Source: an uncultured Anaerolineae bacterium
Lineage (GTDB): Bacteria; Chloroflexota; Anaerolineae; JAAYEA01
Assembly (NCBI GenBank): GCA_964412315.1
Contig: CAYPON010000002.1
Span: 1 to 37,547, forward strand
Reading direction: 5' to 3'
DNA: 37,547 nt
A program made the position numbers and the translations under genes. Of the stretch, positions 21,746 to 37,547 are shown in pieces; the first letter of the stretch is position 1; every line of letters begins with the position of its first letter. The notes beneath the pieces are model-generated. The model worked only from the letters and a program-made list of their open reading frames with translations. It was not told the origin of the DNA and searched no databases.

Positions 21746-21763
21746 CAGGCTGCTCCCTGCCGC

Positions 21764-23353
21764 TCAATCGCTTCCGTAAACCAGGATGTCGGCAGTCTCT
21801 ACCGGGCCTCGATAGTCCAGGATAACCTCCAGCAACCGGTATTTTGCATCCAAGGCTGTCTTGAGAGCGCGGATTTGGTCGAAGAAAGTATCCTTCGGAT
21901 AGGCCTCCAATGGCGCAATAAGCCAGATTTTCCCAGAAGGCCCTCGGGCGCGCGCAATATAGTCTAGCATGGCAGGGATCGCTTCGGCAGCGCGCCGCCG
22001 GCGCTCTGCCCATCCGGCCCAGTCCACCATTTCCACTCGCTGGGGGAGCCACGGAAAAGCTGCTTGTGGCTGTGGGCCACGGAAATAATAGCTGAACGTG
22101 GGAGCCAGATAGTCAGGGGCTACAATGATGACATCTTGTTCTCCAGCGTTTTTTCCGACGTGCTGAGCTATCTCCCGCAAGACAGAAATTGGCCCCTGGT
22201 AGAGCCTGGAATCTGCCCGCAACCAGAGGAATGATATTCCAGTAAGCACTGCCAGAACGAAGAGCCAATGATGTAGCGCAATGACACCCAAGGCTAGCAG
22301 GAGGCAGAGGACAGGAAAGACCACCATTGCCGCATAGGAAGGCAGCAAGCCCTGGCTACGGGCTAATAAAGGCCCCAGTATCATGGGCAGAGCCAAGCCG
22401 GCCACGACCAGATTGCGTGCGGGAGTAATAGGATAGGCGATGTCCAGAGATAGCACGTTCTCTGCCCGTTGGAGGCGGATAGCAAAAGCCCCCAGGGCCA
22501 ATAGAATCACCCACAGATAAGGATACCCTCGGGGCCAGGCCAGGGCGGTTAGCTCGTTGAACAGTCGCAAGACGGTGGCGATGATGGATTGTTGCGGTAA
22601 CCAGGGCCCGACAGCGGATTCCTGGACCTGGAGTTGGCCCCACAAGATAGGCAGGTACGGCGAGAAAAGCACGGCGATGCCGATCTCGGCCAGAATCCAG
22701 GCCCCATAACCGGATTTCGGGCGGCGCTCCCACAACAATTGGAACAGGGCGTAGCCACTCAAAGCGCCGACCCAGAGGATGCCCCAATAATGGGTGTACA
22801 TCGTAGCTGCGGCCAGGAGCGCGTAGGCCAACCAGGCACGTTTCTCCCCCTTTTCCAGGGCGCGATAGAGAAAGATGAGGGCCAATAAGCCCAGCATAGG
22901 CAGGAGAGTATACATGCGCGTCGTGCGGGAACAGGCCACATGTAGCGGCAAAACAGCCCCTATCCAGGCGGCAAGCAGCCCCACTTTGCGATCAAAAAGC
23001 TCTCGTCCTGCCACATAGATCAGCGGAACCGAGACGATGCCACACAGAGCGGAAAGGAGCCGAACACCAAACTCGCTGTATCCCGCCAAGCCAAGCCAAA
23101 AGTGCAGGAGATAGAAATAGAGGGGAGCGTGGGCCGAGCTAGATAATATTCGGCTGATCTCTACGGGAAAGCCTGCGCTGGCTATAAAGACGGTCTCAGC
23201 CTCATCTCGCCAGAGACCATAGGTGCCCAGATGGTAGAGGCGCAATCCTGCTCCTAGGAGCACGATGCCAAGCAAAAGGCCCAGATGTCGGAAATCTTCA
23301 CCAGACCGAAATCCAGAAGATCGAGTTTGCAGATTCTCCAAGTCTTTTACCAT
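21764..23353 (-). CDS. GT-C fold glycosyltransferase, PMT_2 (family 39)-like
   Basis: 529 aa, polytopic. LRLYHLGTYGLWRDEAETVFIA...HAPLYFYLLHFW is the PMT_2-type first-loop acidic motif. It has a C-terminal soluble domain. Confidence 0.8.
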   Translation of the reverse strand: MVKDLENLQTRSSGFRSGEDFRHLGLLLGIVLLGAGLRLYHLGTYGLWRDEAETVFIASAGFPVEISRILSSSAHAPLYFYLLHFWLGLAGYSEFGVRLLSALCGIVSVPLIYVAGRELFDRKVGLLAAWIGAVLPLHVACSRTTRMYTLLPMLGLLALIFLYRALEKGEKRAWLAYALLAAATMYTHYWGILWVGALSGYALFQLLWERRPKSGYGAWILAEIGIAVLFSPYLPILWGQLQVQESAVGPWLPQQSIIATVLRLFNELTALAWPRGYPYLWVILLALGAFAIRLQRAENVLSLDIAYPITPARNLVVAGLALPMILGPLLARSQGLLPSYAAMVVFPVLCLLLALGVIALHHWLFVLAVLTGISFLWLRADSRLYQGPISVLREIAQHVGKNAGEQDVIIVAPDYLAPTFSYYFRGPQPQAAFPWLPQRVEMVDWAGWAERRRRAAEAIPAMLDYIARARGPSGKIWLIAPLEAYPKDTFFDQIRALKTALDAKYRLLEVILDYRGPVETADILVYGSD

Positions 23354-23359
23354 TGCCTC

Positions 23360-25003
23360 TTACCTGTCTAATATCTCGTAAACGACCAGTCGCTCGCCTT
23401 CGCTCATCTCTGTGTGCACGAGCCGCAACTCCGCAGGGATTTGGCGTCCTTCGACCAGGAAGGCAAGCTGTTTGCGCATACTCTTGGTCTCGCGCTCATC
23501 TACGACAAAGTAGCGCGCCCCTTTGTGCCGGGCATAGCGCATGACCTGCTCGTATTCGGCGTTGGGCGTGGGCACCCAGCGCGTGTCGGCGTGGAAGGCG
23601 ATGGCCGGATAGCGGGACATGATGATGGCGTCGGGGGAAAGGCCCTGGGCGCGAAGCCACAGCCCCGTCGTCCTATGGGCCTGCCGGAAAGACCCCTGGC
23701 TGGTCGTCCTGGCCGTGCGCGGCACCATCAACAGACAAAAGCCCAGGGCGGCGATCAGCGGCAGGGCGATGAGCAAATACCTCCACCCTTTGCGCAACGG
23801 CGCGCCGCGCAAGTTCTGCACCGTGCCAGCGAGCCAGTCGCCGGCATCTCGCAAGCCAACGGCCAGCCAGATCAACAGCGTGGGCAAGAGCGCGGCAATG
23901 TACCGGTCTTGCACGAAAAAGAGCAGAAAGGAGAGGACCGGCGCCAGCGAAGCGCAGAGAAGCAGTTCCGCCTTTGTTCGGGGTTTGCTCCACGCCTCAC
24001 GCAGCAGGGCCAGGCCCAGCAGGGGAGCGAAGAAATAGGGGAACAAGCGAAGCGAAAAGAGCGAGTCCGCAAACTTGGCCGCGTTCTGGTAAACTAGCCG
24101 GGCGAAAGCGCGTGGATTGGCCCGGACGTACTCCCACATGCTGACGTTGTAGCTCTCCGGTGAGAAAAAGTACACTTCCAGCCCGCTCTTATCCAATCCC
24201 CAGGTAGCCTTGTCGAATTCCACCACATCGCCCCGGCTCAGCCCGAGGCCGGTGATGAAGGTCACGCCCGCTTTCTCGCTCACCATCCAGGAGCCGGTGT
24301 GCTTATGCACATAGGCAGCATAGGGTATAAAGAAAACGGCAAAGCCGACGAGATAAAGGGCCAGCCCCAGCACTGCCTCGCGCGTAAAAAGTCGCCGCTC
24401 CAGCAGGCGGATGAAAGCGAGGACGAGGCCGATGGCGGCCAGGTAGGCGATGGCTTCCGGACGTGTCAAATAGGCCAGGGCGAACAGCACCCCTGCTGCG
24501 CCGTAAGACCAGGGTGTGCCCTTGCCGCGCAGGGCTAAAAGGGTCGCATAAAGCCCAGTATACACAAAGAAGAAATAGGGGGGTTCAGTTAAAGTGCCCC
24601 AGTAAAGGATGGCGACGGCCAGGGGGGGAAAGAAAGCTGCCAGCAGGATGCTGAAGTAGCCCGCACGCCGGTCGTAGATTTCACGGGCAATGCCGTAGAC
24701 CGGCAGGCATAACGCTGCGCCGAAAATGATGTACCAGATGCGGCTGCTCAGGGCCATATCCCCGGTCAAAAGATAAAGCAGGCCGGTGAGGAAGGGATAG
24801 AGGGGCGCGTGGTGAACGTCGGAATAGCCGGTGAAAGAGTAGCCCTTTCCCGTGATCCAGTTTCGCCCTAGCCAGAGATAGAAAGGCTCATCTCCCCAGA
24901 TGACGCGATCCACGCTCGAGAGGAGAAAACGAAACAGCAACGAGATGGCGATCAGGAGCGCCACGATGCATAATTCGCGGCGAGGGTTCTCTTGCTCGGA
25001 CAT
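23360..25003 (-). CDS. GT-C fold glycosyltransferase, ArnT/PMT_2-like (paralogue of 19991..21745)
   Basis: 547 aa. VIWGDEPFYLWLGRNWITGKGYSFTGYSDVHHAPLYPFLTGLLY aligns with the 19991..21745 product. Shared motifs include FALAYLTRPE and YVHKHTGSW / YLHRHTGQW. Confidence 0.8.
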   Translation of the reverse strand: MSEQENPRRELCIVALLIAISLLFRFLLSSVDRVIWGDEPFYLWLGRNWITGKGYSFTGYSDVHHAPLYPFLTGLLYLLTGDMALSSRIWYIIFGAALCLPVYGIAREIYDRRAGYFSILLAAFFPPLAVAILYWGTLTEPPYFFFVYTGLYATLLALRGKGTPWSYGAAGVLFALAYLTRPEAIAYLAAIGLVLAFIRLLERRLFTREAVLGLALYLVGFAVFFIPYAAYVHKHTGSWMVSEKAGVTFITGLGLSRGDVVEFDKATWGLDKSGLEVYFFSPESYNVSMWEYVRANPRAFARLVYQNAAKFADSLFSLRLFPYFFAPLLGLALLREAWSKPRTKAELLLCASLAPVLSFLLFFVQDRYIAALLPTLLIWLAVGLRDAGDWLAGTVQNLRGAPLRKGWRYLLIALPLIAALGFCLLMVPRTARTTSQGSFRQAHRTTGLWLRAQGLSPDAIIMSRYPAIAFHADTRWVPTPNAEYEQVMRYARHKGARYFVVDERETKSMRKQLAFLVEGRQIPAELRLVHTEMSEGERLVVYEILDR

Positions 25004-25007
25004 GACC

Positions 25008-25388
25008 TCACTCCTCTTTCGACTCTGGCTCCGCCGATAGGCGTTTTTCCAACTGCTGCACTTTTTTCGTCAGGATGGCGAGGTCCTGGGCCAGGGTCTT
25101 GATCTGCTCGCTGAATTTAGAGATGCTTATGGAGAATTGAAACAAAATGAACAGCACGCCCAGGAAAGCGATCAAAAACATCAGAGCGGGGGGATACTCG
25201 ACTCCCACTGCATAGGAGATAACATCCAAAAGATCAACAGCGAGCGAAGCGATCACCAGCACAATCGCCGTTAGCAGCCATAGCAAGGCGTACTCCTCCT
25301 TTAGCTTCTTGGTGCGCACCAGATTGATGACGAAGAGCAGAGTCGCCACGCTCAAAATGACAACGAGTATCCTCGCCCGAAAGAGCAT
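25008..25388 (-). CDS. DUF2304-like small membrane protein (3 TM helices + C-terminal coiled-coil)
   Basis: MLFRARILVVILSVATLLFVINLVRTKKLKEEYALLWLL... matches my memory of the DUF2304 family that accompanies GT2 genes. ATG 25388 is preceded by AGGAGG with a 6-nt spacer. The track's longer start (25460) would overlap the upstream gene and adds a non-hydrophobic Arg-rich extension. Confidence 0.7.
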   Translation of the reverse strand: MLFRARILVVILSVATLLFVINLVRTKKLKEEYALLWLLTAIVLVIASLAVDLLDVISYAVGVEYPPALMFLIAFLGVLFILFQFSISISKFSEQIKTLAQDLAILTKKVQQLEKRLSAEPESKEE

Positions 25389-25413
25389 GTTTTGCCTCCT
25401 GGAGCCGCACCTC

Positions 25414-26268
25414 TCACGAGTGCGCCTTCCAATCCGCCAAAACCTGGCGCAGCGGTGCAAAGGAAAAAGCCTGCAACAGCCGTTCCAACTTACCTAGCGC
25501 GCCCCCGATGTTGCTATAGGTCACTGCCTGGGACACCCAGGGGAGCTTGCGCAGTCGAGGGGTTCCGGAGTAGGTCTCCCAGGGGTGCAGGTAAATGACG
25601 AAAGGCCATCCCCTCGCGTTGATCCGCTGCAAAAGGGCGCGTATAACGACAAAAGGCAACGCCCGCAGATAAAAGCCGCCGCACACGGGCATTTTCCATC
25701 TGCCGAGACGATAAACGGACATTGGGAATTCCCAAAGTGCCCCTTGTGGGTCAGGACGGGTCACATCGCTGTCCCCCAACAGATAAGGCGTCGGCGGGCA
25801 ATCCGCCACGCCGTACATATAATTGCGCAGCGGGAAAATGCTGGAATCGTATTGATAGCTGAACTCACGCAGGATCGGAACCGCCCACCGTGTATCGTTG
25901 TTCAGGGAAAAAGTCGGCGCACGGAAGCCCACGATGTCATCTACAGAGAGAGAGGCCATCAACCCGGCATAACGCCGCAACTCGGCACGCAGCTCGTCCG
26001 CTTGCAGAGCCTCCAGCGGCCGGTGGGACATGCCATGACAGCCGATTTCATGGCCTGCTTCGGCGATCTCGTGCACCAACTCTGGAGCCGATTGCGCCAC
26101 TTCCCCGACGATGAAAAAAGTTGCCCGTACCCCGTAGCGATCCAGGAGGCGCAAGATAGGCCGGGCCGCGGCTTCGATTTGCGGCCTGGCCTCTCCTGGC
26201 GCGACATGACCGCGCACCAATTCAGGATGGTACCATTCTTCCAGGTCCACCGACAAAGCGTTAAGCAT
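25414..26268 (-). CDS. Polysaccharide deacetylase (CE4/NodB fold) of the DUF3473-containing subfamily
   Basis: MLNALSVDLEEWYHPEL.., RATFFIVGEVA, EIGCHGMSH (H-x3-H motif), and a C-terminal region typical of DUF3473-type deacetylases. ATG 26268 gives an 8-nt overlap (ATGCTTAA) with the upstream GT2 stop. Confidence 0.85.
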   Translation of the reverse strand: MLNALSVDLEEWYHPELVRGHVAPGEARPQIEAAARPILRLLDRYGVRATFFIVGEVAQSAPELVHEIAEAGHEIGCHGMSHRPLEALQADELRAELRRYAGLMASLSVDDIVGFRAPTFSLNNDTRWAVPILREFSYQYDSSIFPLRNYMYGVADCPPTPYLLGDSDVTRPDPQGALWEFPMSVYRLGRWKMPVCGGFYLRALPFVVIRALLQRINARGWPFVIYLHPWETYSGTPRLRKLPWVSQAVTYSNIGGALGKLERLLQAFSFAPLRQVLADWKAHS

Positions 26269-27043
26269 TCGTTCCGACCTTCGGCAAACCCGGCTTCGTC
26301 TGATCGAACCGCTTGGCATTAAGATGAGTTCTCTGCCGCAGAAGGACGATAAAAATGGACAAAAGCATCTTGACCACGTAATAGATCGGCCGCAGGCTGG
26401 CGTGCATACTTTGCCCGCTCAGGCGCTCGCGCATGGTCACTGGCACTTCGCGCACTCGAAAGCCGGTGAAGAAAAGAAGCATGAGCAAATCCGCATCAGG
26501 AAAATCGGAGGGATAATTGTCGCGGGCCAGGAAGCGCAGGACATTGGCGTTCAACGCCTGGAAACCGGAAGTTGGATCGGTGATCCGCTGTTTCATGACC
26601 CAAGAGACGATCTCCGCGAAGAAAAACGCCCCCGCCCGTCGCAGCCACGACGCGCGGTATTCCATGCGCCCCAGGAAGCGCGATCCCAAAGCCACATCCG
26701 CTTGTTGGCTTTCCACCATCTCCAAGAGGGCCGCGATGCCGGAAGGATCATGCTGGCCATCCGCGTCCATCAGGATGGCGGTATCGTAGCCATTCTCGAC
26801 AGCGTACTTGAAACCTGTCTGCACCGCACCCCCGTAGCCGAGATTGCAGGGCAGGCTGACCACCTCCGCGCCCATCTCGGCGGCCAGAGACGCCGTGTTG
26901 TCGGTCGAACGATCATCAACCACCAGGATGTCGGCGCCTTGGGAGAGCGGTTTTAGCTCGGCCAAAACCGGCCCGATATTTCGCGCCTCATTGTGGGCGG
27001 GCATGATGATCAGCCGTTTGCGTGCAGGCTCTCTGTTCGGCAT
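26261..27043 (-). CDS. Glycosyltransferase family 2 (DPM1/GtrB/ArnC-like)
   Basis: RLIIMPAHNEARNI, LVVDDRSTDNT, LMDADGQHDP (DxD), ITDPTSGFQAL. Confidence 0.85.
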   Translation of the reverse strand: MPNREPARKRLIIMPAHNEARNIGPVLAELKPLSQGADILVVDDRSTDNTASLAAEMGAEVVSLPCNLGYGGAVQTGFKYAVENGYDTAILMDADGQHDPSGIAALLEMVESQQADVALGSRFLGRMEYRASWLRRAGAFFFAEIVSWVMKQRITDPTSGFQALNANVLRFLARDNYPSDFPDADLLMLLFFTGFRVREVPVTMRERLSGQSMHASLRPIYYVVKMLLSIFIVLLRQRTHLNAKRFDQTKPGLPKVGTNA

Positions 27044-27057
27044 GGTTTTTGCCTTTC

Positions 27058-27756
27058 CTAGTATCCGAACCGCAGGCTGAGCACGGTGCGCGTATAGGCC
27101 AAGATCATGCGCAGAAGGCGCGACTTACTTTGACCGTGGCGGCGCAACACGTAAAATACTGGCACTTCCAACATGCTATATCCTTCGCGCCAGGCCAGGA
27201 AAAGCAGGCGCATGAACCATTCGCCGTATCCGTAAAAGATGCGATCCAAATCCATGCGCAGCAGCTTGTCACGGCGCATGGAGAAAAAGCCGCTCAGGTT
27301 GTCCTGGATTTGGGTCCTGAGCACAAGCCGCACGAGTACATTATACAGGAAGCTCAAGTAATACCGCAAGTTGTCCTCCATGCCGCCACCCATGGTGAAA
27401 CGCGAGCCGATGATCATGTCATAATACTCGAGGAATCTGACCATTTGCGGCAGCATCTTGGGATCATGGTTGAAATCGGTGTCCATCACGACGACAATAT
27501 CTCCGTTAGAGTGCAGAATCCCGTATTTGATAGCCGTGCCTAGCCCTTTCTCCTGGGTGCGCACATGGAGTTGCAGGCGGGGGTCGGTTCGGGCACGCTC
27601 CCGGACTAGCCCAGCCGTTCCGTCGGGGCTGTTGTCGTCTACCGCGACCAATTCATGCTCGATCTTCGCCACCGTCAAATAGTCCTCGGCGGCCTCGATC
27701 AGAGAGATGATATTCTTTGCTTCATTATAAGTTGGCAAAATGACAGAAACCTTCAT
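27058..27756 (-). CDS. Glycosyltransferase family 2, polyprenyl-phosphate sugar synthase-like (DPM1/CsbB/GtrB-like)
   Basis: VSVILPTYNEAKNI, VAVDDNSPDGT, VVMDTDFNHDP (DxD), IQDNLSGFFSM. The start overlaps the YfhO-like gene end by 32 nt. Confidence 0.85.
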   Translation of the reverse strand: MKVSVILPTYNEAKNIISLIEAAEDYLTVAKIEHELVAVDDNSPDGTAGLVRERARTDPRLQLHVRTQEKGLGTAIKYGILHSNGDIVVVMDTDFNHDPKMLPQMVRFLEYYDMIIGSRFTMGGGMEDNLRYYLSFLYNVLVRLVLRTQIQDNLSGFFSMRRDKLLRMDLDRIFYGYGEWFMRLLFLAWREGYSMLEVPVFYVLRRHGQSKSRLLRMILAYTRTVLSLRFGY

Positions 27757-30199
27757 GCGCGATTCTCCTCAGTAGTGTCGGTAGATCACAGGTTTGCATC
27801 ACGACGACGGCCAGGAGTGTTAGACTGGTTATCCCATATCCCAACCAGACGTACCAGGGCTTTTCGTAGCGGAAGAGCAGGTTATGTTTCCCCGCTTCCA
27901 GGCGTGCGCCGAGAAAGGCATAGTTGACCCGCCAGACGCGCTCCTCCCGGCCATCCACATAGAGATGCCAATTCGGATACCAGGCTTCGCTCACCATCAG
28001 GACTGCTGGCTCGGCTGTCTCCACGGAAATCTCGATTCTCTCCGGCCCCGGACGCCTCCAGGTGACAGACGCTGAGGCTGCACCATTCCGCTCGCTGCTC
28101 CACGTCGGCGCCAATCTGATCACCTCAGCGTGCTTTATCACTCCGCCGGGCACCACTCGCTCTATTTCGGCGGCCCAAGTCGGGTCACGGCACCACGGCT
28201 CTCGCACAATGACCCGCTCGAACTGCACGATCTCCTCCCGGCTATAGCCGTCGGCGTAATCCGAAGGCCCGGCCACGAGCGCCACGTCCTGCGCCACCAA
28301 GGCCGGCAGGATGTCCAAAGCCCTGTACTCCGGATCGCCCAAATAGAGGGCGCTTTCCTGGTAAACGCGGACAAACGGTTGCCAGTTGGGATTTTCCCAA
28401 ATGGAGAGGCTTGCCGAATCCCACGCTTTCTGGGCATAACCTCGCGCCAATATCTCCTGAAGCTGGACATCCTGCTTCCTGTAGGGCCGCGCCACGATGT
28501 AACGCACGCTGCCCAACTCCAGGGCAGTGGGCACATCTCCCCAACTGTGGAGCGCCCACATGTGACGCGGCGCGCCGTTGTCGTAATATCCCCAAAGGTG
28601 TGCGCCTCCGTCATATTGGAGGGCGTAGCTTCGCAGGTAATTATCCCGGTGCGCTGTCGTGTATTCCCAACTGCGAAAACCGGTCCCTTGAGCTGCCATC
28701 CACCGATAGGCTTCTATCTCATCCTCGGGGAAATAACCGGGCAAGGTCACCAAGGCCTTCGTCGCCGGCAGATAGTCAAGAAAGAGCAAAGCTGCGATGA
28801 CAACTGTTATGCCCCAGGTGTATAATGGTGATTTGGCAAGTCGTTCACCCTGCCAACGGAGCAGCCCTTGCGTCCCCCAACCCACGAGCATCGAGAGAAA
28901 AAAGCCGACAAAGATCAGGCCACGGAATGCGGCCAGCCGTCCCAGGAAGGGCAGGCGGGGGAAGGGGTTCCAGGGCAACCAGCTTCCCATCACAAACAGT
29001 AGTGACAGGCCCAGCAAAACCAGCGTGATCCTGGTTCGCGCATCCTGGCGCGCGTGCCACATGCCCGACAGAGCCAGCCCTAACGCCACCAGGCCGGGAT
29101 ACCAGGCGATAGACCAAAACGCGCTGCCAATGACGGGCATTCGGGGCAATGCGTAGTCCGCCCCCAACCGCTTGACAATGGCCCGCCATATCAGAGTTGG
29201 CGGCAGGGCATAATCCCGCAGCAGTTCCGCGCTCTGGAAAGAGGCGGCTCCATGTTTCAGATAAATGCCCACATATTCTAGCTCGATGATGCCTGGCAAT
29301 ACAAAGAAAGCCGCTAGCCCCACAGCCACAAGGCCAGCGATGGCCCAAAAGCCGAGCAGCGAACGCCAGGTGTACCTGCGTTGCCACAGCAGCGACGCAT
29401 CCCTCAGGATAACGTATAAGCCCCAAAAAGGTGCGGTCAAGAGCGTGTGCTCGCTGTTGACGATGGGAAGAAGGCCAAGCAACAGCCCGAGGTAGAGGCC
29501 ATCCCGTGCCCGTAACCCTGAAGCTTGGCTACTCCTGAGGCCCTTCAATCCTTCCTGTGTTGTCATCCTAGACGGAGCGAGATTCTTCGCTTCGCTCAGA
29601 ATGACATCCGGGTGACGTCTGCTCGGAATGACATCCGGGTGGCGCCTGCTCCGCTCATAGACTAGAAAGAGCAAAGGTAGAAGTGCCCAAAAGAGAGCAT
29701 GTGCCCACGCTTCGGCAGCTCCGTGGAGATGAAAGGGAAATAGCGCATAGGCCAGGGCTGCGATGAGGGACGGCGCGCGTTCCTGGTTTAGCTCATAAAC
29801 AAATTCATAAAAGGTGATGGCGGAGAGGACGAAAGCAGCGATGAAAGTGACCTTGAAGAGCCATTCCAGCGAGGCATTGGTGATGATCGAAAGCAAGGCC
29901 AGGGCGTCGTACAACGGGTAGGACAAATACCTCACCAGGGGGAAACCCGCGAACTCGTACTGGCTCCATTCCGTCAGCAAGCCACCTTCCAGGATCCGTT
30001 GCTTAGCCATCCAGATGATGCCCAGCTCCGGCACCATCTCCAGACGAGGGCTGGCCAAACAGCCCGGCCCTAGCCAGCCCCGCAAGGCAAAAGCTACGAG
30101 AAGCGCGAGGAGGCCCCAGTCCCATGGCCTCCGCCACGCGAACATACTCGCCCTTGCCCTGGCCAGACGTTTTGCCAAAGGCACTGTTTCAGACCTCAC
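27725..30199 (-). CDS. YfhO-like GT-C polytopic membrane protein
   Basis: 824 aa with many TM helices in the N-terminal 500 aa. A large extracytoplasmic domain ends VSEAWYPNWHLYVDGREERVWRVNYAFLGARLEAGKHNLLFRYEKPWYVWLGYGITSLTLLAVVV (the YfhO-type C-terminal pattern plus a terminal TM). The start is GTG 30199 or GTG 30184. It carries an in-frame repeat element at 29562..29650. Confidence 0.7.
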   Translation of the reverse strand: MRSETVPLAKRLARARASMFAWRRPWDWGLLALLVAFALRGWLGPGCLASPRLEMVPELGIIWMAKQRILEGGLLTEWSQYEFAGFPLVRYLSYPLYDALALLSIITNASLEWLFKVTFIAAFVLSAITFYEFVYELNQERAPSLIAALAYALFPFHLHGAAEAWAHALFWALLPLLFLVYERSRRHPDVIPSRRHPDVILSEAKNLAPSRMTTQEGLKGLRSSQASGLRARDGLYLGLLLGLLPIVNSEHTLLTAPFWGLYVILRDASLLWQRRYTWRSLLGFWAIAGLVAVGLAAFFVLPGIIELEYVGIYLKHGAASFQSAELLRDYALPPTLIWRAIVKRLGADYALPRMPVIGSAFWSIAWYPGLVALGLALSGMWHARQDARTRITLVLLGLSLLFVMGSWLPWNPFPRLPFLGRLAAFRGLIFVGFFLSMLVGWGTQGLLRWQGERLAKSPLYTWGITVVIAALLFLDYLPATKALVTLPGYFPEDEIEAYRWMAAQGTGFRSWEYTTAHRDNYLRSYALQYDGGAHLWGYYDNGAPRHMWALHSWGDVPTALELGSVRYIVARPYRKQDVQLQEILARGYAQKAWDSASLSIWENPNWQPFVRVYQESALYLGDPEYRALDILPALVAQDVALVAGPSDYADGYSREEIVQFERVIVREPWCRDPTWAAEIERVVPGGVIKHAEVIRLAPTWSSERNGAASASVTWRRPGPERIEISVETAEPAVLMVSEAWYPNWHLYVDGREERVWRVNYAFLGARLEAGKHNLLFRYEKPWYVWLGYGITSLTLLAVVVMQTCDLPTLLRRIAHEGFCHFANL
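29562..29650. repeat. Composite repeat (family C) in frame in the YfhO-like gene: imperfect hairpin plus 27-nt tandem duplication
   Basis: The hairpin is gtcatcctagacggagcgag-attc-ttcgcttcgctcagaatgac (29562..29605). The tandem units are 29597..29623 and 29624..29650, with 24/27 identical. Encoded peptide: SRRHPDVIPSRRHPDVILSEAKNLAPSRMTT. The SEAKNL/SRMT-type peptide is one I recall as a recurrent translation of a dispersed bacterial hairpin repeat. Confidence 0.7.
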
Positions 30200-30839
30200 T
30201 CTCTGTCAGGCTGAGTGGGGCTGATGAGCCGCCTGGCTTCATCTGGGCCTGCGCGAGGGGCAAGTAATACAGGTTCATCTTGCGGCCATACAGTTCAAAG
30301 CCCCCCACAATTTGGAAGCCGTAGTTAACATAAAAGGCATTGGCTGCGGAGTTCGCCGCGTCCACTGTGACTTTGAAGGCGATAGCCCCCCGCCGGCGGC
30401 TCTCTTCGCTTAAAGCGTCGAGCAACTGGGTGCCGATGCGTCGGCGCCGCGACTGGTCTCTGACGCCGATAAAGAGAAGCTCCGCTTCCCCAGGCTCGAT
30501 ATCTAGCTTGTCGGGATAAAAAAACGTTTGCAACACCTTGGCCAGAAGCGAAGGATGCCGGATCAACCGACAGAGCGTGGGTAGGGCCAGGTGTGCCCCC
30601 TCTCTGGTCATAAGCTCCCTGAACAGCGCATGGGTGTCATTGGTGCCTATGGCCACGCCCAAAGCATCGTCCCCTTCCATGGCGACATAGCCATAGCCCC
30701 ATTTGGAATCGCTAAGCCCGGCATAGAAGGCCGTGAGAAAGCCCTCGCCCAGAGTCGTGAGAAACGTCCCCGGTTGCCCTTCTATGTGCAACAGCGCCGC
30801 CGCGCGCGCGTCCTCTCGCTGTACCTTGCGGATTTCCAT
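30189..30839 (-). CDS. GNAT-family N-acetyltransferase (copy 2 of a tandem pair)
   Basis: 216 aa. Acetyl-CoA motif A-like VRDQSRRRRIGTQLLDAL. Alignable end to end with the 30848..31489 product (MEIRKVQREDARAAALLHIEGQPGTFLT.. vs MEIREIRREDCRGAAQVHMEGQPGTFLT..). Confidence 0.75.
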   Translation of the reverse strand: MEIRKVQREDARAAALLHIEGQPGTFLTTLGEGFLTAFYAGLSDSKWGYGYVAMEGDDALGVAIGTNDTHALFRELMTREGAHLALPTLCRLIRHPSLLAKVLQTFFYPDKLDIEPGEAELLFIGVRDQSRRRRIGTQLLDALSEESRRRGAIAFKVTVDAANSAANAFYVNYGFQIVGGFELYGRKMNLYYLPLAQAQMKPGGSSAPLSLTESEV

Positions 30840-30847
30840 TGATGACT

Positions 30848-31489
30848 CTATCCCCTTTGGGTCTCATTCTTTGCTTGGCTCACCGAGTCGGCCTTGCTTT
30901 CCTGGTAAGGGTAGGAATACAGGTTCATCTTTCTTCCGTACAGGTCAAAGGTCTTGATCAGGCGAAAGGGCCTTTTGACATGCATGGCATTGGATACCGG
31001 GTTAGCCGCATCCACTGTGGACAGGAGAGCAGTGGCTCCTCGCCGGCGCGTATCCTCGATGAGCGTGTCCAGCAATTGGCTGCCGATGCGCTGACGCCGC
31101 GCCTTGGCGCTGACGCCCATAAAGAGAAACTCGGCCTCCCCGGGCTGTTCACCCAGCTTATTGGGGTAGAAGAGGGTCTGGAGGATTTTGATGATAAGGG
31201 AAGGGTCTTTGAGCACCTGGCGCAGCACAGGGAAGAACAGGCGAGGCCCTTGTTTGAGGATGAACTCTTTGAACATCGTGTGCGTGTCGGTAGTGGCAGT
31301 GACCACTCCCAAAACCTCGTCTCCTTCGACGGCGACAAAACCATAGCCCCACGAGGAATCAGCCAGCACGCGATAAAAAGTCGTGAGGAACGTTTCGCCC
31401 AAGGAGGTGAGAAAAGTCCCCGGCTGCCCCTCCATGTGCACCTGCGCTGCCCCGCGGCAATCTTCTCGTCGTATCTCGCGTATCTCCAC
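30848..31489 (-). CDS. GNAT-family N-acetyltransferase (copy 1 of a tandem pair)
   Basis: 213 aa. Motif A-like VSAKARRQRIGSQLLDTL. GTG start directly abutting the aminotransferase stop. Confidence 0.75.
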   Translation of the reverse strand: MEIREIRREDCRGAAQVHMEGQPGTFLTSLGETFLTTFYRVLADSSWGYGFVAVEGDEVLGVVTATTDTHTMFKEFILKQGPRLFFPVLRQVLKDPSLIIKILQTLFYPNKLGEQPGEAEFLFMGVSAKARRQRIGSQLLDTLIEDTRRRGATALLSTVDAANPVSNAMHVKRPFRLIKTFDLYGRKMNLYSYPYQESKADSVSQAKNETQRG

Positions 31490-32593
31490 TTACCCCTCCA
31501 CGTTGTCCTTGAGGACCTGGCATATCTGGGTTATTTGTTGCGGCGTCAGTGTTGCCGATGAGGGCAGATTCAGACCTTTTCGCGAAAGCTCCGTGGCTAC
31601 AGGAAACTCCTGGCCTTCGGCTCCGGCCTGGTAAGGCGGCATAGTGTGAATAGGGTAGAAGAAGGGACGGCTGTCTATGTCGCGTGCTTTCAGTTCTTTC
31701 ATCAACTCGTCGCGGGCCAGGCCGTAGCTATCCTCCGCCAGTATGGAGTACATCCAGTACACATTCCGCGCCCAGGAGGCTTCAGGCGGCAGGCTGATGC
31801 CCGGCACACTCCGCAACAGGCCATTGTAGAGAGCGGCATTTCGCCTCTTGGCGGCGATGATCTCCTCGATACGCTCCAATTGGGCTACGCCGAGGGCTGC
31901 CTGCAGATTGGTGAGCCGATAGTTAAAGCCGATTTCGGGATGCCAGTACCGCTTCTCTTTCGACATGCCGTGGTCGCGCAGGGAACGCGCCCGTTCCGCC
32001 CACTCCGCGTTGTCGGTGAGCACCATGCCACCCTCGCCGGTGGTGATGATCTTGTTGCCGTAAAAGCTGAAGCAGGACATATCGCCCAGCGAACCCGCCC
32101 GCCGGCCTTTGTAAAGCGCGCCATGGGCCTCGGCAGCATCCTCGATCACATAGAGATGGTGACGCTTGGCGATTTCGAGGATGGGATCCATATCGGCGGG
32201 ATGGCCGTAGAGGTGCACGGGGATGATCGCCTTGGTGCACCCCGTTATCTTTTCTTCTATCCGCGCCGGATCCATGTTCCAGGTCTGCGGCTCGGAGTCC
32301 ACGAAGACGGGGCGCGCGCCGGTGTAGGTGACGGCGTTAGCCGTGGCGATAAAGGTCAGCGTGGGCACGATCACCTCGTCCCCCGGCCCGATGCCCAGCA
32401 CGGCCAACCCCAAGTGTAAAGCGGTAGTGCCATTGCTGGTGGCAATGCCATACTTTGCCCCACAGTACTGGCTGAAGCGCTCCTCAAACTCCCGCACGTA
32501 TTTGCCAAGCGATGACACCCAGCCGGTTTTGATGCAGTCCGTAACGTATGCTAATTCGTTCCCCCCCAGCGAAACGTCTGTCACAGGTATCAT
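31490..32593 (-). CDS. DegT/DnrJ/EryC1/StrS-family PLP-dependent sugar aminotransferase (perosamine-synthase-like)
   Basis: GNELAYVTDCIKTGWVSS.GKYVREFEERFSQYCGAKYGIATSNGTTALHL, DAAEAHGA, and the PLP-lysine motif SFYGNKIITTGEGGM. Confidence 0.9.
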   Translation of the reverse strand: MIPVTDVSLGGNELAYVTDCIKTGWVSSLGKYVREFEERFSQYCGAKYGIATSNGTTALHLGLAVLGIGPGDEVIVPTLTFIATANAVTYTGARPVFVDSEPQTWNMDPARIEEKITGCTKAIIPVHLYGHPADMDPILEIAKRHHLYVIEDAAEAHGALYKGRRAGSLGDMSCFSFYGNKIITTGEGGMVLTDNAEWAERARSLRDHGMSKEKRYWHPEIGFNYRLTNLQAALGVAQLERIEEIIAAKRRNAALYNGLLRSVPGISLPPEASWARNVYWMYSILAEDSYGLARDELMKELKARDIDSRPFFYPIHTMPPYQAGAEGQEFPVATELSRKGLNLPSSATLTPQQITQICQVLKDNVEG

Positions 32594-32625: not shown

Positions 32626-34221
32626 CTATTGGCCCGCAGCAATCCTCTTCCTCAGGTCGAAGATTAGATATGTCTTACTCTTGGCTACTATAGGGAATTC
32701 CCTGCTCAGCACTTGTTTCAAATCCTTCTGCGCTTCAAATTCCCCGAAATTTGTAACAATGAAATATTCGGAGAAGCCTGCCTTGATCATCTTATTCAGG
32801 CGCTCCTCTACATTTAGTTCTTGCTTTCCCAGCAGTTCTCGTTGCCGGAGGGCGCCTCCTGCAGGCCAGAGTTGCCCAGAGAGTTCCCCGTAATATTGGA
32901 GCGGCATTCCGTTGTAGAAAGACATCAAGATAGTTTTAGTGCTGTGTCCAACAGCCTCGCCAATTTCCTGGGCTACACTTACTTCGCGGGCGAAGTCAGG
33001 AGCAAGCCCCCATGTCTTTGTAGAGGGGCTGATAAATGTTACCACGAGAAGCGCGCCCCAGACAACCAGGCGCCAAATCCATCCCGCACGGGCCTGACCC
33101 AAACGGCTCGAGATTAGAGCGCCTGCGGAGCCTAAGGAAAGGGCCACAATGGGGATAAGCTGCAAATGATAATACTGGTGAGTATGGATGTGCCAATTGA
33201 ATACCAAGCCGAAGACAATATAGCCGATCCATAATCCTATCAGCAAGGCTGTCAGCGATCCGCGGCGGAGCATGAGGAGCCCCAAAAGCGCCCCTATGAG
33301 AGCAACATACCCGATCGCGTGATTGATTAGCCTGAGCCACTTCTGCCAAAAAAGCGGGGAGAACAGCAGTTGAGGGAGGAATCTTCCTCCGATTAGCCCT
33401 CGCAGATATCCAGTGATGAACATGCCGTACACGAAGAACAAAACGGTCGGCAAAAGGCTCATAATTGCAAATAACCAAAGGTTGCGACTAGCCGCCGTCC
33501 TCCGAACGCCTTGTCTGAAAATGCTGAGCGAGATGAATGCTCCGAATATGACAAATAGGCAAATGGGGGGCTTGACAAACAGGGCCAGACCTGAGACGAT
33601 GGCTGCGATCACCAACCTGCGCAGCGATGGCCGCGCATGATACCGCCATATGGCAAAAAGGCTAGCCAGAAACAACATGATCATCAACGGATCCGGCTGG
33701 AAACTCATGCTTGCGGCTATGCTGAAGGGAAGAAAGAGATAGAACGCCATAGAAAAGGCCGCGGCTTCGATGGAGATCAACTCCTTGGCGAGCAAGTAGA
33801 GGAAGGCCCCGCCTATCAACCAGAATATCGAGGACAGCAATCGTGGAACCCAGAGTTTTTCCCCCCCGATAGCGCGATAGGCAAGGGCTGTTATGGTTTC
33901 CATGATCGGAAGCTCAGGGTTCCTTCTCATGCTAGCGATTGCGACCTGTTTTCTCCATTCAGGAATTGACTCCAGGTTCCTAAAATAGTATCCCCTGGCA
34001 ATGAGAGCAGAAAGATAGTGGCGCATAGGAGCAAATCCAGAAGGCTCGTCAATGTGGTAGAATCTGATTCCTAAAGCTGCAATGAACAAAGAGCTAATAA
34101 TAAGCAACCATAATCCCCTTTTTAAGGGAAAGCGCTGTTTCCCCTGAGTTGGTTCAGATTGCGATTCGGCTTGCATTGTAGTGGCCTCCTGAGCTAGCTT
34201 GAGCGCCATGACTGGCGACAC
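32626..34221 (-). CDS. GT-C fold glycosyltransferase, ArnT/PMT_2-like
   Basis: 531 aa, polytopic (about 11 or more helices), with a C-terminal soluble domain of about 110 aa. IRFYHIDEPSGFAPMRHYLSALIARGYYF is the first-loop acidic motif. Its last 142 nt are 88% identical to 37406..37547. The start is GTG 34221 or ATG 34209. Confidence 0.75.
   Translation of the reverse strand: MSPVMALKLAQEATTMQAESQSEPTQGKQRFPLKRGLWLLIISSLFIAALGIRFYHIDEPSGFAPMRHYLSALIARGYYFRNLESIPEWRKQVAIASMRRNPELPIMETITALAYRAIGGEKLWVPRLLSSIFWLIGGAFLYLLAKELISIEAAAFSMAFYLFLPFSIAASMSFQPDPLMIMLFLASLFAIWRYHARPSLRRLVIAAIVSGLALFVKPPICLFVIFGAFISLSIFRQGVRRTAASRNLWLFAIMSLLPTVLFFVYGMFITGYLRGLIGGRFLPQLLFSPLFWQKWLRLINHAIGYVALIGALLGLLMLRRGSLTALLIGLWIGYIVFGLVFNWHIHTHQYYHLQLIPIVALSLGSAGALISSRLGQARAGWIWRLVVWGALLVVTFISPSTKTWGLAPDFAREVSVAQEIGEAVGHSTKTILMSFYNGMPLQYYGELSGQLWPAGGALRQRELLGKQELNVEERLNKMIKAGFSEYFIVTNFGEFEAQKDLKQVLSREFPIVAKSKTYLIFDLRKRIAAGQ
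32641..32782 (-). repeat. Direct repeat partner of 37406..37547 (3' ends of two paralogous GT-C genes, offset 4765 nt)
   Basis: Hand alignment without gaps gives 125/142 identical. This includes a 45-nt exact run, 32737..32781 = 37502..37546. Confidence 0.85.
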
Positions 34222-34287
34222 GAGCTACGCTTTGCCTATTTGAGCCTTAACCTGACGGCGGAGGTGAAAGCGTCACTGGATTGCCTG

Positions 34288-34956: not shown

Positions 34957-34980
34957 CGTCTTCTTTTCTCCCCTCTTCGC

Positions 34981-36006: not shown

Positions 36007-36036
36007 TTGGGTTCCTTCTAACAGAAATGAGAGACA

Positions 36037-37362: not shown

Positions 37363-37387
37363 ACCCTTCCCTAGAGTTATGCCGACG

Positions 37388-37547
37388 TTACTGTTTGCTG
37401 GAGCCAATCCTTTTCCTTAGGTCGAAGATCTGGTATCTCTTATGCTTGGCTACTAAGGCGAATTCGTTGCTCAGCACTTGTTTCAAATCCTCCTGCGCGT
37501 TAAATTCCCCGAAATTTGTAACAATGAAATATTCGGAGAAGCCTGCT
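37388..37547 (-). CDS. 3' end of a further ArnT/PMT_2-like GT-C gene (paralogue of 32626..34221); gene begins beyond the right edge
   Basis: The open-ended reverse frame reads ..AGFSEYFIVTNFGEFNAQEDLKQVLSNEFALVAKHKRYQIFDLRKRIGSSKQ* (stop 37390..37388). It is nearly identical to the C-terminus of the 32626..34221 product (..GFSEYFIVTNFGEFEAQKDLKQVLSREFPIVAKSKTYLIFDLRKRIAAGQ*). Confidence 0.65.
   Translation of the reverse strand, partial: AGFSEYFIVTNFGEFNAQEDLKQVLSNEFALVAKHKRYQIFDLRKRIGSSKQ

Follow-up and report, generated by a model that had tools for sequence, protein, structure and literature searches.

The window that we analysed spans 37,547 nucleotides of a contig from an uncultured Anaerolineae bacterium. 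Eight genes, all on the minus strand, occupy positions 25008 to 32593, limits that correspond to the stop codon of the DUF2304 gene and the start codon of the DegT gene, respectively. An initial annotation had read these genes as a single Arn-like route to a lipid-linked amino sugar. ORF prediction and Pfam/NCBIfam searches confirmed the gene order that it had given, as well as the three PMT_2-type GT-C genes that follow directly at positions 19991-25003 (Table 1). Its parts list was incomplete, however, since a fourth PMT_2-type GT-C gene directly upstream of DegT, a further GT-C gene, a third DPM1-like GT2 gene and a MOP/Wzx-family flippase gene, the last three in the same co-directional array, had been overlooked. 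Two GT4 genes are also encoded in the window. The order GT2/CE4/DUF2304/GT-C is repeated in dozens of related loci, and the arrangement is therefore not due to chance.

Table 1. Genes of the window discussed in the text, with their module assignment and profile scores.
Feature	Position	Strand	Module	Remarks
MOP/Wzx-family flippase	2654..4183	-		Pfam Polysacc_synt_3 247 bits; NCBIfam MOP flippase 219 bits
Further GT-C	11649-13727			same co-directional array
Third DPM1-like GT2	13738-14466			same co-directional array
SDR	17631-18596			HpnA 305 bits (cut-off 367)
B12-radical-SAM	18593-19981			AprD4 121 bits; HpnJ 114 bits; also 'lipid biosynthesis B12/rSAM' model
PMT_2-type GT-C no. 3	19991..21745	-		Pfam PMT_2 33 bits
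PMT_2-type GT-C no. 2	21764..23353	-		Pfam PMT_2 80 bits
PMT_2-type GT-C no. 1	23360..25003	-	B	Pfam PMT_2 52 bits
DUF2304 small membrane protein	25008..25388 (ORF to 25460)	-	B	Pfam PF10066 91 bits
CE4+DUF3473 deacetylase	25414..26268 (ORF to 26319)	-	B	Pfam Polysacc_deac_1 75.6 bits; DUF3473 110 bits
GT2b, short PpgS/GacI-like GT2	26261..27043	-	B	Pfam Glycos_transf_2 81 bits
GT2a, short DPM1-like GT2	27058..27756	-	A	Pfam 99 bits
YfhO-like GT-C	27725..30199	-	A	Pfam YfhO 36 bits
GNAT copy 2	30189..30839	-	A	Pfam Acetyltransf_1 38 bits
GNAT copy 1	30848..31489	-	A	Pfam Acetyltransf_1 39 bits
DegT	31490..32593	-	A	Pfam DegT_DnrJ_EryC1 451 bits
Fourth PMT_2-type GT-C	32626..34221	-		Pfam PMT_2 52 bits; 10 TM helices; directly upstream of DegT

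The two GT2 enzymes of the eight-gene set have the polyprenyl-phosphate glycosyltransferases PfDPMS, ArnC and GtrB as their closest solved relatives. GT2b (260 aa), which has one C-terminal hydrophobic helix, matches PpgS best among the NCBIfam models, over its full length and with a score (92.6 bits) far under the equivalog cut-off of 370; it is a candidate PpgS/GacI-like polyprenyl-phosphate HexNAc synthase. GT2a (232 aa, no TM helix) aligns with PfDPMS over residues 1-225 (105 bits) and with ArnC (54 bits), and is predicted to be a DPM1-like polyprenyl-phosphate glycosyltransferase. The initial annotation had considered that these enzymes might turn out to be processive polymer synthases, but both are short proteins of the DPMS/ArnC/GtrB type, and no channel-forming TM domain was found in either of them.

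The CE4 protein probably starts at position 26268, giving 284 residues, in agreement with public gene calls. It contains the HGMSH motif, and residues D8, E10, H78, H82, R116 and H228 are invariant across 32 homologues. Its AlphaFold2 model (pLDDT 93.7) has a NodB fold and was grouped by Foldseek with NodB1.2 structures. In the proposed comparison with ArnD, the catalytic residues are intact, yet the protein is neither a member of the ArnD family nor a close ArnD homologue. A literature search for "DUF3473" retrieved no paper.

We detected neither a signal peptide nor a TM helix in the CE4 protein. Within the CE4+DUF3473 family, one protein (P0313) is a single-chain fusion of a GT2 and a CE4/DUF3473 part, whose GT2 part aligns with GT2b from end to end (29% identity, E 7e-27) and whose gene, in locus L083, has those of a large polytopic membrane protein and a MOP flippase as neighbours. 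Elsewhere in the family, the fusion partners are phosphoglycosyl transferases (Bac_transf or WecA-type), GT4 enzymes and a MurJ-like flippase, all of which work at the cytoplasmic face in the assembly of lipid-linked glycans. Together with the lack of export signals, this argues against an extracellular polymer as the substrate, and on the evidence available a deacetylase acting only on polymer, as the initial annotation had allowed for, would not fit. Instead, the protein is probably a cytoplasmic enzyme and a candidate polyprenyl-P-HexNAc de-N-acetylase.

DUF2304 had been presented as a protein family of no demonstrated function. This is incorrect: GacJ of S. pyogenes and Rv3632 of M. tuberculosis are DUF2304 proteins, and each binds its GT2 partner (GacI and PpgS, respectively) and stimulates it (bioRxiv 10.1101/180810; PMC9671496). 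The protein encoded here probably starts at position 25388 (126 aa), as in public gene calls, and hydropathy analysis gives three TM helices and an amphipathic helix at the C-terminus. It belongs to the GacJ/Rv3632 family and is a probable activating partner of the GT2. Of the two roles suggested for it earlier, that of GT2 partner agrees with what is established for GacJ and Rv3632; the published activator role and the lack of similarity to ArnE (18 bits) speak against that of sugar translocator. Unlike the system described here, the GacIJ and PpgS/Rv3632 systems do not include a CE4 enzyme.

Related loci (80) were collected with a CE4 profile; this is a CE4-centred sample, and the counts out of 80 refer to it. 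Their comparison indicates that the region most likely divides into two separable modules, each with donor and transferase genes. Module A consists of the perosamine-synthase-like DegT gene, the GNAT gene(s), GT2a and the YfhO-like GT-C. Module B, which is conserved in Chloroflexota, consists of GT2b, CE4+DUF3473, DUF2304 and the PMT_2 GT-Cs. A GT2b homologue adjoins CE4 in 62 of the 80 loci, 54 of which lack DegT; DUF2304 was found in 44, and PMT_2 GT-Cs like those of the window in 28. GT2a orthologues are present in nine loci, all with a GNAT gene and eight with DegT, the ninth being cut by a contig end; at a threshold of at least 300 bits they are restricted to loci with GNAT/DegT (9/9 versus 0/71). 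Each module also occurs by itself: module B is present without module A in loci L002, L006, L008, L017, L019, L031 and L033, and two DegT-GNAT-YfhO-GT2 clusters (L085 and L086) have no CE4 gene within 10 kb.

The initial annotation had named loss of the neighbourhood in relatives as grounds for discarding its reading. The neighbourhood is conserved. In the CE4 tree, the association of GT2 and DUF2304 (with or without GT-C) is characteristic of entire clades in Chloroflexota, Eisenbacteria and Deltaproteobacteria. The GT2/CE4/DUF2304 core is also present outside the Chloroflexota, with a permuted gene order in Deltaproteobacteria. In a further clade, which comprises 17 loci of Chloroflexota, only the GT2-CE4 pair is retained, and in locus L059 this pair is flanked by unrelated housekeeping genes.

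These data bear directly on the single linear pathway proposed at first, in which a DegT-made amino sugar is transiently acylated by a GNAT, loaded by a GT2, deacylated by CE4, flipped by DUF2304 and transferred by a GT-C. All its parts share one orientation in the window and lie close together, the DegT/GNAT/GT2a/YfhO genes lie immediately upstream of GT2b-CE4 in 9 of the 80 loci, and an established precedent exists in ArnB transamination with subsequent N-acylation (PMC12690121). However, GT2a is strictly linked to DegT/GNAT and CE4 to GT2b, and module B without DegT/GNAT (54 loci) and module A without CE4 both exist, so that CE4 probably has a substrate other than the DegT/GNAT product. DUF2304 being a published GT2 activator, and relatives of the locus carrying a separate ArnE-like EamA/SMR gene, also speak against a single route, which we regard as distinctly improbable. 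The Arn-like logic first proposed does not extend through all eight genes but does apply to the CE4-centred core.

Within that core, GT2b and CE4 share 8 nt, from the CE4 ATG to the GT2b stop codon (ATGCTTAA), the 25-nt spacer between CE4 and DUF2304 contains AGGAGG upstream of the DUF2304 ATG, and a spacer of 4 nt separates the DUF2304 stop codon from the ATG of GT-C no. 1. The overlap, the isolated GT2-CE4 pairs, the GT2-CE4 fusion and the fusions to cytoplasmic-face enzymes make an Arn-like step in module B, i.e., a polyprenyl-P sugar synthase followed by cytoplasmic de-N-acylation and GT-C transfer, a well-supported prediction.

Alternatively, CE4 might deacetylate a polyprenyl-diphosphate-linked sugar or oligosaccharide repeat in the cytoplasm, as part of a Wzx/Wzy-type route in which the GT2 is a fellow traveller. 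Caulobacter HfsH and the XrtA/PEP-CTERM-associated deacetylases are proposed precedents; the closest curated model of the CE4 protein is NCBIfam TIGR03006, the XrtA-system polysaccharide deacetylase (219 bits, under the 276 cut-off), and the HfsH model is weakly matched. Some family fusion partners (phosphoglycosyl transferases, GT4s) act on polyprenyl-PP-linked sugars or oligosaccharides, so that the substrate of the family may be lipid-linked glycans in general. In addition, the window has its GT4 and MOP flippase genes, and a GT2 is missing from about 18 of the 80 CE4 loci, most of these being from other phyla and archaea. Against this, CE4 in the clade of the window is paired specifically with a DPM1/PpgS-like GT2 whose gene overlaps its own, isolated GT2-CE4 pairs occur far from other glycan genes, a fusion with a DPM1-like GT2 exists, and the window yielded no phosphoglycosyl transferase gene. 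We therefore consider this alternative unlikely.

Our preferred reading is extracytoplasmic glycosylation through polyprenyl-monophosphate sugars, with module B unmasking a HexNAc and module A keeping its acetyl group; we assign the whole two-module scheme a probability of roughly 0.6. In module B, GT2b with DUF2304 would load polyprenyl phosphate at the cytoplasmic face with HexNAc taken from a nucleotide sugar, as suggested by homology and the published GacI/GacJ and PpgS/Rv3632 biochemistry. The translationally coupled CE4+DUF3473 metallo-deacetylase would then strip the N-acetyl group to give polyprenyl-P-HexN, a step to which synteny, gene overlap, the Rosetta-stone fusion, topology and intact catalytic residues point. 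After flipping, at least one PMT_2-type GT-C would move the free-amine sugar onto an envelope acceptor. Module B would thus follow the Arn logic of mask, load, unmask, flip and transfer, the acetyl group being the mask, but with non-orthologous parts. CE4+DUF3473 is accordingly proposed as a candidate family for polyprenyl-P-HexNAc deacetylation, and the probable unmasking on the carrier would represent an enzyme step without an assigned gene in related mycobacterial pathways.

In hopanoid side-chain chemistry, HpnI adds GlcNAc, HpnK deacetylates and HpnJ rearranges. By analogy, the GT2, the deacetylase and the conserved downstream B12-radical-SAM and SDR could modify a membrane lipid head group, yielding an amino-sugar or cyclitol lipid and not a glycosyl donor. 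The SDR and radical SAM matches (Table 1) and a radical SAM gene after the GT-Cs in 16 related loci are in line with this, but all these scores are well under the equivalog cut-offs, the GT2s match polyprenyl-P glycosyltransferases, the only known DUF2304 partnerships are with Pren-P synthases, and several GT-Cs, users of Pren-P sugar donors, are interleaved with the genes concerned. The probability of such a lipid product is very low.

GT-C no. 1, with at least eight TM helices, is the candidate transferase for the lipid-linked amino sugar; in 28 loci, an orthologue of it (478-780 bits) comes after DUF2304. Orthologues of GT-C no. 2 occupy the same position in loci L004, L010-L012, L025, L041 and L043, and GT-C no. 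3 has conserved orthologues in relatives (411-677 bits). For the flipping step, the ArnE-like EamA/SMR protein would be the candidate in relatives. No ArnE/F-like or GtrA-like small ORF was found in the window, where the distant MOP/Wzx gene is the sole flippase-like gene and its product a weak candidate for the translocator of lipid-linked sugars. The MOP flippase and the GT4s could also belong to a Wzx/Wzy-type route.

In module A, DegT and the GNATs would make an N-acetylated 4-amino-6-deoxyhexose (perosamine-type) nucleotide sugar, which would be loaded on polyprenyl phosphate and transferred by the YfhO-type GT-C with its acetyl group retained. The DegT-family sugar 4-aminotransferase had rightly been called perosamine-synthase-like, as its closest solved relative is Caulobacter GDP-perosamine synthase (PDB 3bn1/3dr4; 418 bits, E 3e-124, versus 213 bits for ArnB). 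The YfhO-like GT-C (824-aa ORF; 806 aa in the NCBI call) matches its Pfam model weakly and at the C-terminus only, its homologues carry PF09586, and every one of the top 25 Foldseek matches of its AlphaFold2 model (pLDDT 84.9) is a GT-C enzyme, with AftD, STT3, PglB, AftA and ArnT among them. The two GNAT N-acetyltransferase copies are tandem paralogues with near-identical N-termini, and relatives have a single copy.

The window is a dense minus-strand array of genes for envelope glycan synthesis, whose features are listed in the table. On the coding strand, the gene order within 25008-32593, and the three PMT_2-type GT-C genes that follow, proved to be exactly as the initial annotation had given them. 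The genes on its list are all present, but it had overlooked a fourth PMT_2 GT-C, a third DPM1-like GT2, another GT-C and a MOP/Wzx flippase. For the deacetylase with a CE4/NodB and a C-terminal DUF3473 domain (hereafter CE4) and for the DUF2304 protein, the ATG codons given in the table are the most likely starts; public gene calls concur for both, and the DUF2304 start has AGGAGG ahead of it. The stop codon of one of the two neighbouring short GT2 genes (GT2b) and the CE4 ATG lie within an 8-nt overlap (ATGCTTAA), and a GT-C ATG is located 4 nt past the DUF2304 stop codon. The nearest relatives are Chloroflexota/Anaerolineae MAGs, with CE4 identities of at most 67%.

Features of the glycan gene array (positions in the window; strand where assigned)
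Feature	Position	Strand	Remarks
Fourth PMT_2 GT-C	32626-34221	minus	directly upstream of DegT
DegT aminotransferase	31490-32593	minus	Pfam 451 bits
GNAT copy 1	30848-31489	minus	
GNAT copy 2	30189-30839	minus	
YfhO-like protein	27725-30199	minus	
GT2a, short GT2	27058-27756	minus	232 aa
GT2b, short GT2	26261-27043	minus	260 aa
CE4 with HGMSH motif and DUF3473 domain	25414-26319 (ORF)	minus	likely start 26268, 284 aa
DUF2304 protein	25008-25460 (ORF)	minus	likely start 25388, 126 aa
Three PMT_2 GT-Cs	19991-25003	minus	after DUF2304
Third DPM1-like GT2	13738-14466		
Further GT-C	11649-13727		
MOP/Wzx flippase	2654-4183		

The best solved relatives of both short GT2 enzymes, GT2a and GT2b, are the polyprenyl-phosphate (Pren-P) glycosyltransferases PfDPMS of P. 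furiosus, ArnC and GtrB, which align over nearly the full length. The initial annotation had named processive polymer synthases as the alternative; because the two proteins are so short and have zero (GT2a) and one (GT2b) hydrophobic helix, they are not expected to be processive. Having a GT-A domain without a membrane channel, both are predicted members of the DPM1/ArnC/GtrB/PpgS class. The best curated match of GT2b in NCBIfam is PpgS, the mycobacterial polyprenyl-P-GalNAc synthase (PMC9671496), at 92.6 bits versus a cut-off of 370 and spanning positions 4-196 of the 226-position model; GT2b is not predicted to be a PpgS equivalog.

The DUF2304 protein matches PF10066 with 91.3 bits (cut-off 25.5), has three TM helices and shares an operon with GT2b, CE4 alone being located in between. 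PF10066, about three TM helices and the vicinity of a TM-less Pren-P GT2 place it in one family with GacJ and Rv3632. The DUF2304 family had been described as having no demonstrated function. However, GacJ of S. pyogenes, a DUF2304 protein, co-purifies with the Und-P-GlcNAc synthase GacI and reduces its Km for Und-P from 18.7 to 1.1 uM (bioRxiv 10.1101/180810). Natural GacI-GacJ fusions occur, and the GacJ homologue Rv3632 of M. tuberculosis stimulates PpgS (bioRxiv 10.1101/180810; PMC9671496; PMC3485146). The initial proposal that DUF2304 may be the flippase, analogous to ArnE/F, was abandoned: BLASTP against E. coli ArnE gave 18 bits, which is not significant. A search for homologues of the DUF2304 protein returned 169 relatives, all of them close Chloroflexota.

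CE4 has neither a signal peptide nor a TM helix. Its Pfam Polysacc_deac_1 match scores 75.6 bits, its HGMSH motif aligns with MT2 of solved CE4 enzymes, and residues D8, E10, H78, H82, R116 and H228 are invariant among 32 homologues. The AF2 model has a NodB fold (pLDDT 93.7) and its top Foldseek matches are all CE4 enzymes. Sequence and model thus agree in predicting a CE4/NodB superfamily member, with an Asp/His/His metal site, MT1 Asp, MT2 HxxxH, MT3 Arg and MT5 His, which bears out this part of the initial annotation.

The comparison with ArnD that the initial annotation had made came out differently. The best structural matches in Foldseek are 3RXZ, 3QBU, 3CL6 and 1Z7A (TM 0.59-0.66), and ArnD (8T0J) ranks only 18th (TM 0.52, 13% identity). 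NCBIfam gave no ArnD match at E<=1e-3, and 8T0J was not retrieved by phmmer at E<=1 or by a profile search at E<=10. With hhalign, E. coli ArnD was aligned with a probability of 81.7 (E 1e-5) over just 102 columns around HExGxH. All four approaches, phmmer, profile search, hhalign and Foldseek, gave superfamily-level similarity only, and ArnD-like membership was rejected. According to a review on NodB folds (PMC10967932), ArnD is nearest to the same NodB1.2 structures as those found for CE4 by Foldseek, the set nearest to both being 3RXZ, 3QBU, 1Z7A and 3S6O. Because ArnD is missed by sequence and profile searches, ranks 18th in Foldseek and yet shares this NodB1.2 neighbourhood, the two proteins are distant cousins in one structural neighbourhood that belong to separate families. 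The best curated model for CE4 is TIGR03006, the XrtA-system polysaccharide deacetylase, at 219.4 bits versus a cut-off of 276.2, and CE4 is not a predicted equivalog of it.

When 1.84 billion representative proteins were searched with a profile, a CE4+DUF3473 family of 2,168 clusters (50% identity) emerged at E<=1e-30. About 20 of the best 150 clusters are fusion proteins. In one of these, P0313, a GT2 domain is fused to CE4/DUF3473, and this GT2 part aligns with the full length of GT2b (29% identity, E 7e-27). Further partners found fused to CE4 are a methyltransferase, a MurJ-like flippase, GT4 and additional GT2 enzymes, and phosphoglycosyl transferases of the Bac_transf or WecA type. All glycosyltransferases and flippases among them have polyprenyl-(di)phosphate-linked intermediates as substrates on the cytoplasmic side of the membrane, and this, together with the absence of an export signal, argues strongly against an extracellular polymer as the substrate of CE4.

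The gene encoding P0313 (locus L083, 8001-14929, GCA_031624635.1) has as neighbours the genes for a MOP flippase (Polysacc_synt) and for a polytopic DUF2206 membrane protein of 774 aa, a putative GT-C. Judged from a BAT/HTH_10 regulator, the host is probably a haloarchaeon, in which the synthase/deacetylase/flippase/transferase logic seems to have an independent counterpart.

To study the conservation of the gene neighbourhood, 80 loci obtained by a scan with the CE4 profile, one genome per species, were annotated by phmmer and iterated HMMs from the window's proteins. A GT2b homologue adjoins CE4 in 62 of the 80 loci; 44 loci contain DUF2304, and 28 have PMT_2 GT-Cs like those of the window. 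On the CE4 tree, these associations mark whole clades: GT2, DUF2304 and GT-Cs in the Chloroflexota clade of the window; GT2 and DUF2304 in an Eisenbacteria and a Deltaproteobacteria clade, with permuted gene order in the latter; and the GT2-CE4 pair alone in a second Chloroflexota clade of 17 loci. In one locus (L059), the pair is flanked by a VKOR gene and an FAD-synthetase gene. Chloroflexota MAGs with relatives of the cassette include Ardenticatenaceae, Caldilineae and Ktedonobacterales. Among the sampled loci, those from archaea, Omnitrophota, Planctomycetes and a number of other lineages have CE4 genes without GT2, DUF2304 or GT-C partners. The initial annotation had made its proposal depend on conservation of the neighbourhood in relatives, and for GT2b and CE4 this holds clade-wide. 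The specific, translationally coupled partner of CE4 in the window's clade is the Pren-P GT2 enzyme GT2b. This tight pairing fits less well with a CE4 that acts, like HfsH or the XrtA-system enzyme, on a polyprenyl-PP-oligosaccharide, and the window yielded no gene for a phosphoglycosyl transferase; such a substrate, which would agree with the fusions seen at family level and with the TIGR03006 similarity, is in our opinion unlikely.

The distribution of GT2a is a different one. Orthologues scoring at least 300 bits occur in nine of the 80 loci, where a GNAT gene is always present and a DegT gene in eight, the ninth being cut by a contig end; among the other 71 loci there are none at this threshold. 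Moreover, two loci reached via more distant YfhO homologues (L085 and L086) contain DegT-GNAT-YfhO-GT2 clusters with no CE4 gene within 10 kb. The GT2a distribution and these clusters argue that two modules lie side by side in the region: module A, consisting of DegT, GNAT, GT2a and the YfhO-like GT-C, and module B, consisting of GT2b, CE4, DUF2304 and the PMT_2 GT-Cs. Their separation contradicts the single linear Arn-like pathway through all genes that the initial annotation had proposed, which we now consider quite improbable. One of the clusters without CE4, from a hydrothermal-vent metagenome (L085), has five YfhO paralogues and, at 12334-13140, a Formyl_trans_N gene of the ArnA N-terminal type, which suggests that it keeps N-formyl or N-acetyl amino sugars as final decorations.

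In module A, the best PDB relative of DegT is the GDP-perosamine synthase of Caulobacter (418 bits, E 3e-124), whereas ArnB gives 213 bits, so the earlier designation "perosamine-synthase-like" was right. On the NCBIfam ArnB model, DegT scores 247 bits versus a cut-off of 631, and it is not predicted to be an ArnB. Module A would probably use GT2a and the YfhO-like GT-C to install a perosamine-type sugar that stays N-acetylated, as no deacylation is involved. The two GNATs (30189-31489), which lie in tandem and have almost the same N-terminus (MEIREIRREDCRGAAQVHMEGQPGTFLTSL and MEIRKVQREDARAAALLHIEGQPGTFLTTL), are paralogues from a recent local duplication; in the closest relatives there is only one GNAT.

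The four PMT_2 proteins score 52, 80, 33 and 52 bits, all above the cut-off of 26.1. Using phmmer, no PDB match was obtained for GT-C no. 1 or for the YfhO-like protein, and the fold of the latter was therefore settled with AF2 and Foldseek: the model has a pLDDT of 84.9 and its top 25 matches are all GT-C enzymes. As its homologues also carry PF09586, the YfhO assignment of this protein, weak in itself, was confirmed. BLASTP of E. coli ArnT against the window GT-C was not significant. By sequence and model, all five proteins are predicted GT-C enzymes, which does not extend to specific ArnT orthology. Within the YfhO-like gene, at about 29500-29640 (minus), a loop (SRRHPDVIPSRRHPDVILSEAKNLAPSRMT...) of low model confidence is missing from the homologue consensus; its DNA contains the tandem cacccggatgtcattc[ct]gagc plus the motif GTCATTCTGAGCGAAGCGAAGAATCTC, is single copy in the window and resembles a short palindromic repeat element that has been inserted in frame.

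Domain identities, gene coupling, conserved synteny, fusions and intact catalytic residues form the basis of the pathway proposed here for module B, whose enzymatic steps, sugar, flippase and acceptor we infer. GT2b, aided by DUF2304, would synthesize polyprenyl-P-HexNAc; CE4 would strip the acetyl group on the cytoplasmic face; a flippase would move the polyprenyl-P-HexN across; and the PMT_2 GT-Cs would pass the free-amine sugar to acceptors. We give this mechanism as a whole a probability of about 0.6.

As to the flippase, an ORF scan of the window detected no EamA/SMR-like or other small multi-TM ORF, and the only flippase-like gene is that of the MOP protein, 21 kb away. Ten related Chloroflexota loci encode a separate 117-aa EamA/SMR protein resembling ArnE; the one in L002 (997-1350) matches Pfam EamA and SMR and scores 26.6 bits against ArnE. 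The stretch of about 1.3 kb between CE4 and DUF2304 in some relatives was considered as a flippase gene and discarded, since it encodes a GT87-family GT-C. This extra GT-C of about 430 aa (PF09594, 99.7 bits) is present at this position in many relatives (L005, L007, L009-L013, L016, L022, L025-L027, L041, L043, L044 and L057) and is absent from the window.

Directly after the GT-Cs, a conserved block (16932-19981, minus) encodes a B12-binding radical SAM protein, an SDR, a hexapeptide acetyltransferase and a GT2 (MftF/HpnI-like); it also occurs in L004, L013, L016 and about 13 further loci. The radical SAM gene follows the GT-Cs in 16 related loci. Its product scores 121 bits with AprD4, 114 bits with HpnJ and 106 bits with the 'lipid biosynthesis B12/rSAM' model, and the SDR is closest to the hopanoid-associated HpnA (305 bits, cut-off 367). 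A lipid-head-group route analogous to HpnI/HpnK/HpnJ could account for these conserved AprD4/HpnJ-like and HpnA-like genes, but the radical SAM and SDR scores are all far below the family cut-offs, and we regard such a route as very improbable. The block may have a role in remodelling the amino sugar, of which AprD4/AprD3-type deoxygenation would be an example.

In the Arn route, a GT2 attaches an N-acylated sugar to polyprenyl phosphate; the sugar is de-N-acylated on the lipid, flipped and transferred by a GT-C (PMC12690121). Module B would follow this logic; the best solved relatives of the two GT2s include ArnC, and ArnD and CE4 share the NodB fold. However, no part is orthologous: ArnB, ArnC, ArnD, ArnE/F and ArnT orthology each failed, and ArnA, in the form of a formyltransferase or decarboxylase, is absent from the window, as is ArnE/F. 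In addition, the mask in module B would be an acetyl group on a HexNAc from the general pool, and the perosamine-synthase-like DegT belongs to module A. What survives of the initial Arn comparison is the scheme, as proposed for module B.

By analogy, module B appears to resemble the galactosamine pathway of mycobacterial and corynebacterial arabinogalactan even more. There, the TM-less GT2 PpgS (Rv3631), with the DUF2304 partner Rv3632, makes polyprenyl-P-GalNAc, the lipid is deacetylated, and the GT-C Rv3779 transfers the free-amine sugar (PMC9671496; PMC3485146); PMC9671496 calls the deacetylase and the flippase 'as yet unidentified'. Both systems have a TM-less Pren-P GT2, a DUF2304 partner and a GT-C, and PpgS is the best NCBIfam match of GT2b. 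Unlike in mycobacteria, the window's deacetylase gene is translationally coupled to that of the GT2, the PpgS score is far under the cut-off, and the GT-Cs are several and of the PMT_2 type.

In the GacI/GacJ/GacK/GacL system, a GT2 makes Und-P-GlcNAc, GacJ complexes and activates it, and a GT-C transfers the sugar outside (bioRxiv 10.1101/180810). A Wzx-type flippase candidate is present in the window as well. Other three-component systems are GtrA/B/C and CsbB/GtcA/YfhO; a GT-C of the YfhO type also occurs in module A. In contrast to module B, the Gac and three-component systems have no deacetylation and transfer GlcNAc as such. The Polysacc_deac_1 plus DUF3473 architecture of CE4 is found in the TIGR03006 deacetylase of XrtA/PEP-CTERM systems and in HfsH of Caulobacter, which are probably cytoplasmic too, but CE4 is partnered by a Pren-P GT2 and DUF2304 rather than by an exosortase/EPS locus. 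In Francisella (FlmF2/NaxD/FlmK) and Bordetella (LgmA/B/C), a GT2 makes Und-P-GalNAc or Und-P-GlcNAc, which is deacetylated on the lipid, and an ArnT-like GT-C passes the free-amine sugar on to lipid A, a molecule not known from Chloroflexota. The deacetylase NaxD belongs to the YdjC family and is not a CE4 enzyme.

Envelope modification with free-amine sugars from carrier lipids is known to affect the charge of the surface, phage adsorption, immune recognition and resistance to antimicrobial peptides; the Ara4N of lipid A and the GalN of mycobacterial arabinogalactan are examples. To our knowledge, on-lipid deacylases are known only from the Arn, Francisella and Bordetella systems; the present locus and related ones suggest another, very widespread family of enzymes for this step. 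With somewhat less than even confidence, we propose that CE4+DUF3473 proteins are general cytoplasmic de-N-acetylases of polyprenyl-phosphate-linked sugars, and that a widespread GT2/CE4/DUF2304/GT-C cassette installs a free-amine (cationic) envelope hexosamine in Chloroflexota, Eisenbacteria, Deltaproteobacteria and some archaea. If so, the family would supply the enzyme type that the mycobacterial PpgS/Rv3779 pathway requires and that has no assigned gene there, and the downstream B12-radical-SAM/SDR pair might remodel the amino sugar further. Within the literature that we could cover, which is incomplete, we found no paper mentioning DUF3473 and no report of a Pren-P-HexNAc CE4 deacetylase or of a CE4 coupled to a GacI/PpgS-type synthase. 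The new elements would be lipid-linked sugar deacetylation as the candidate function of a huge, so far uncharacterised CE4 subfamily, a first functional context for Pfam DUF3473, and a compact four-gene cassette that is directly testable in E. coli membranes. The concept is incremental and its logic familiar; its main use lies in annotation and in finding the missing enzyme. Many Pren-P-sugar/GT-C systems probably take part in decorating the envelopes of Chloroflexota.

Two further features of the glycan island were observed. The 1208-aa product of the ORF at 6321-9947 (minus) combines CBM96/disaggregatase-repeat, S9-peptidase/esterase and SdrD_B domains; its gene adjoins that of a metallophosphoesterase, and the protein may process glycans at the surface. 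The GC content falls from about 0.58 to 0.47-0.52 in the final 4.5 kb (33000-37547), where the upstream PMT_2 GT-C is encoded together with a methyltransferase, a DUF362 protein and an FAD amine oxidase; this stretch may be a mosaic boundary of the island.
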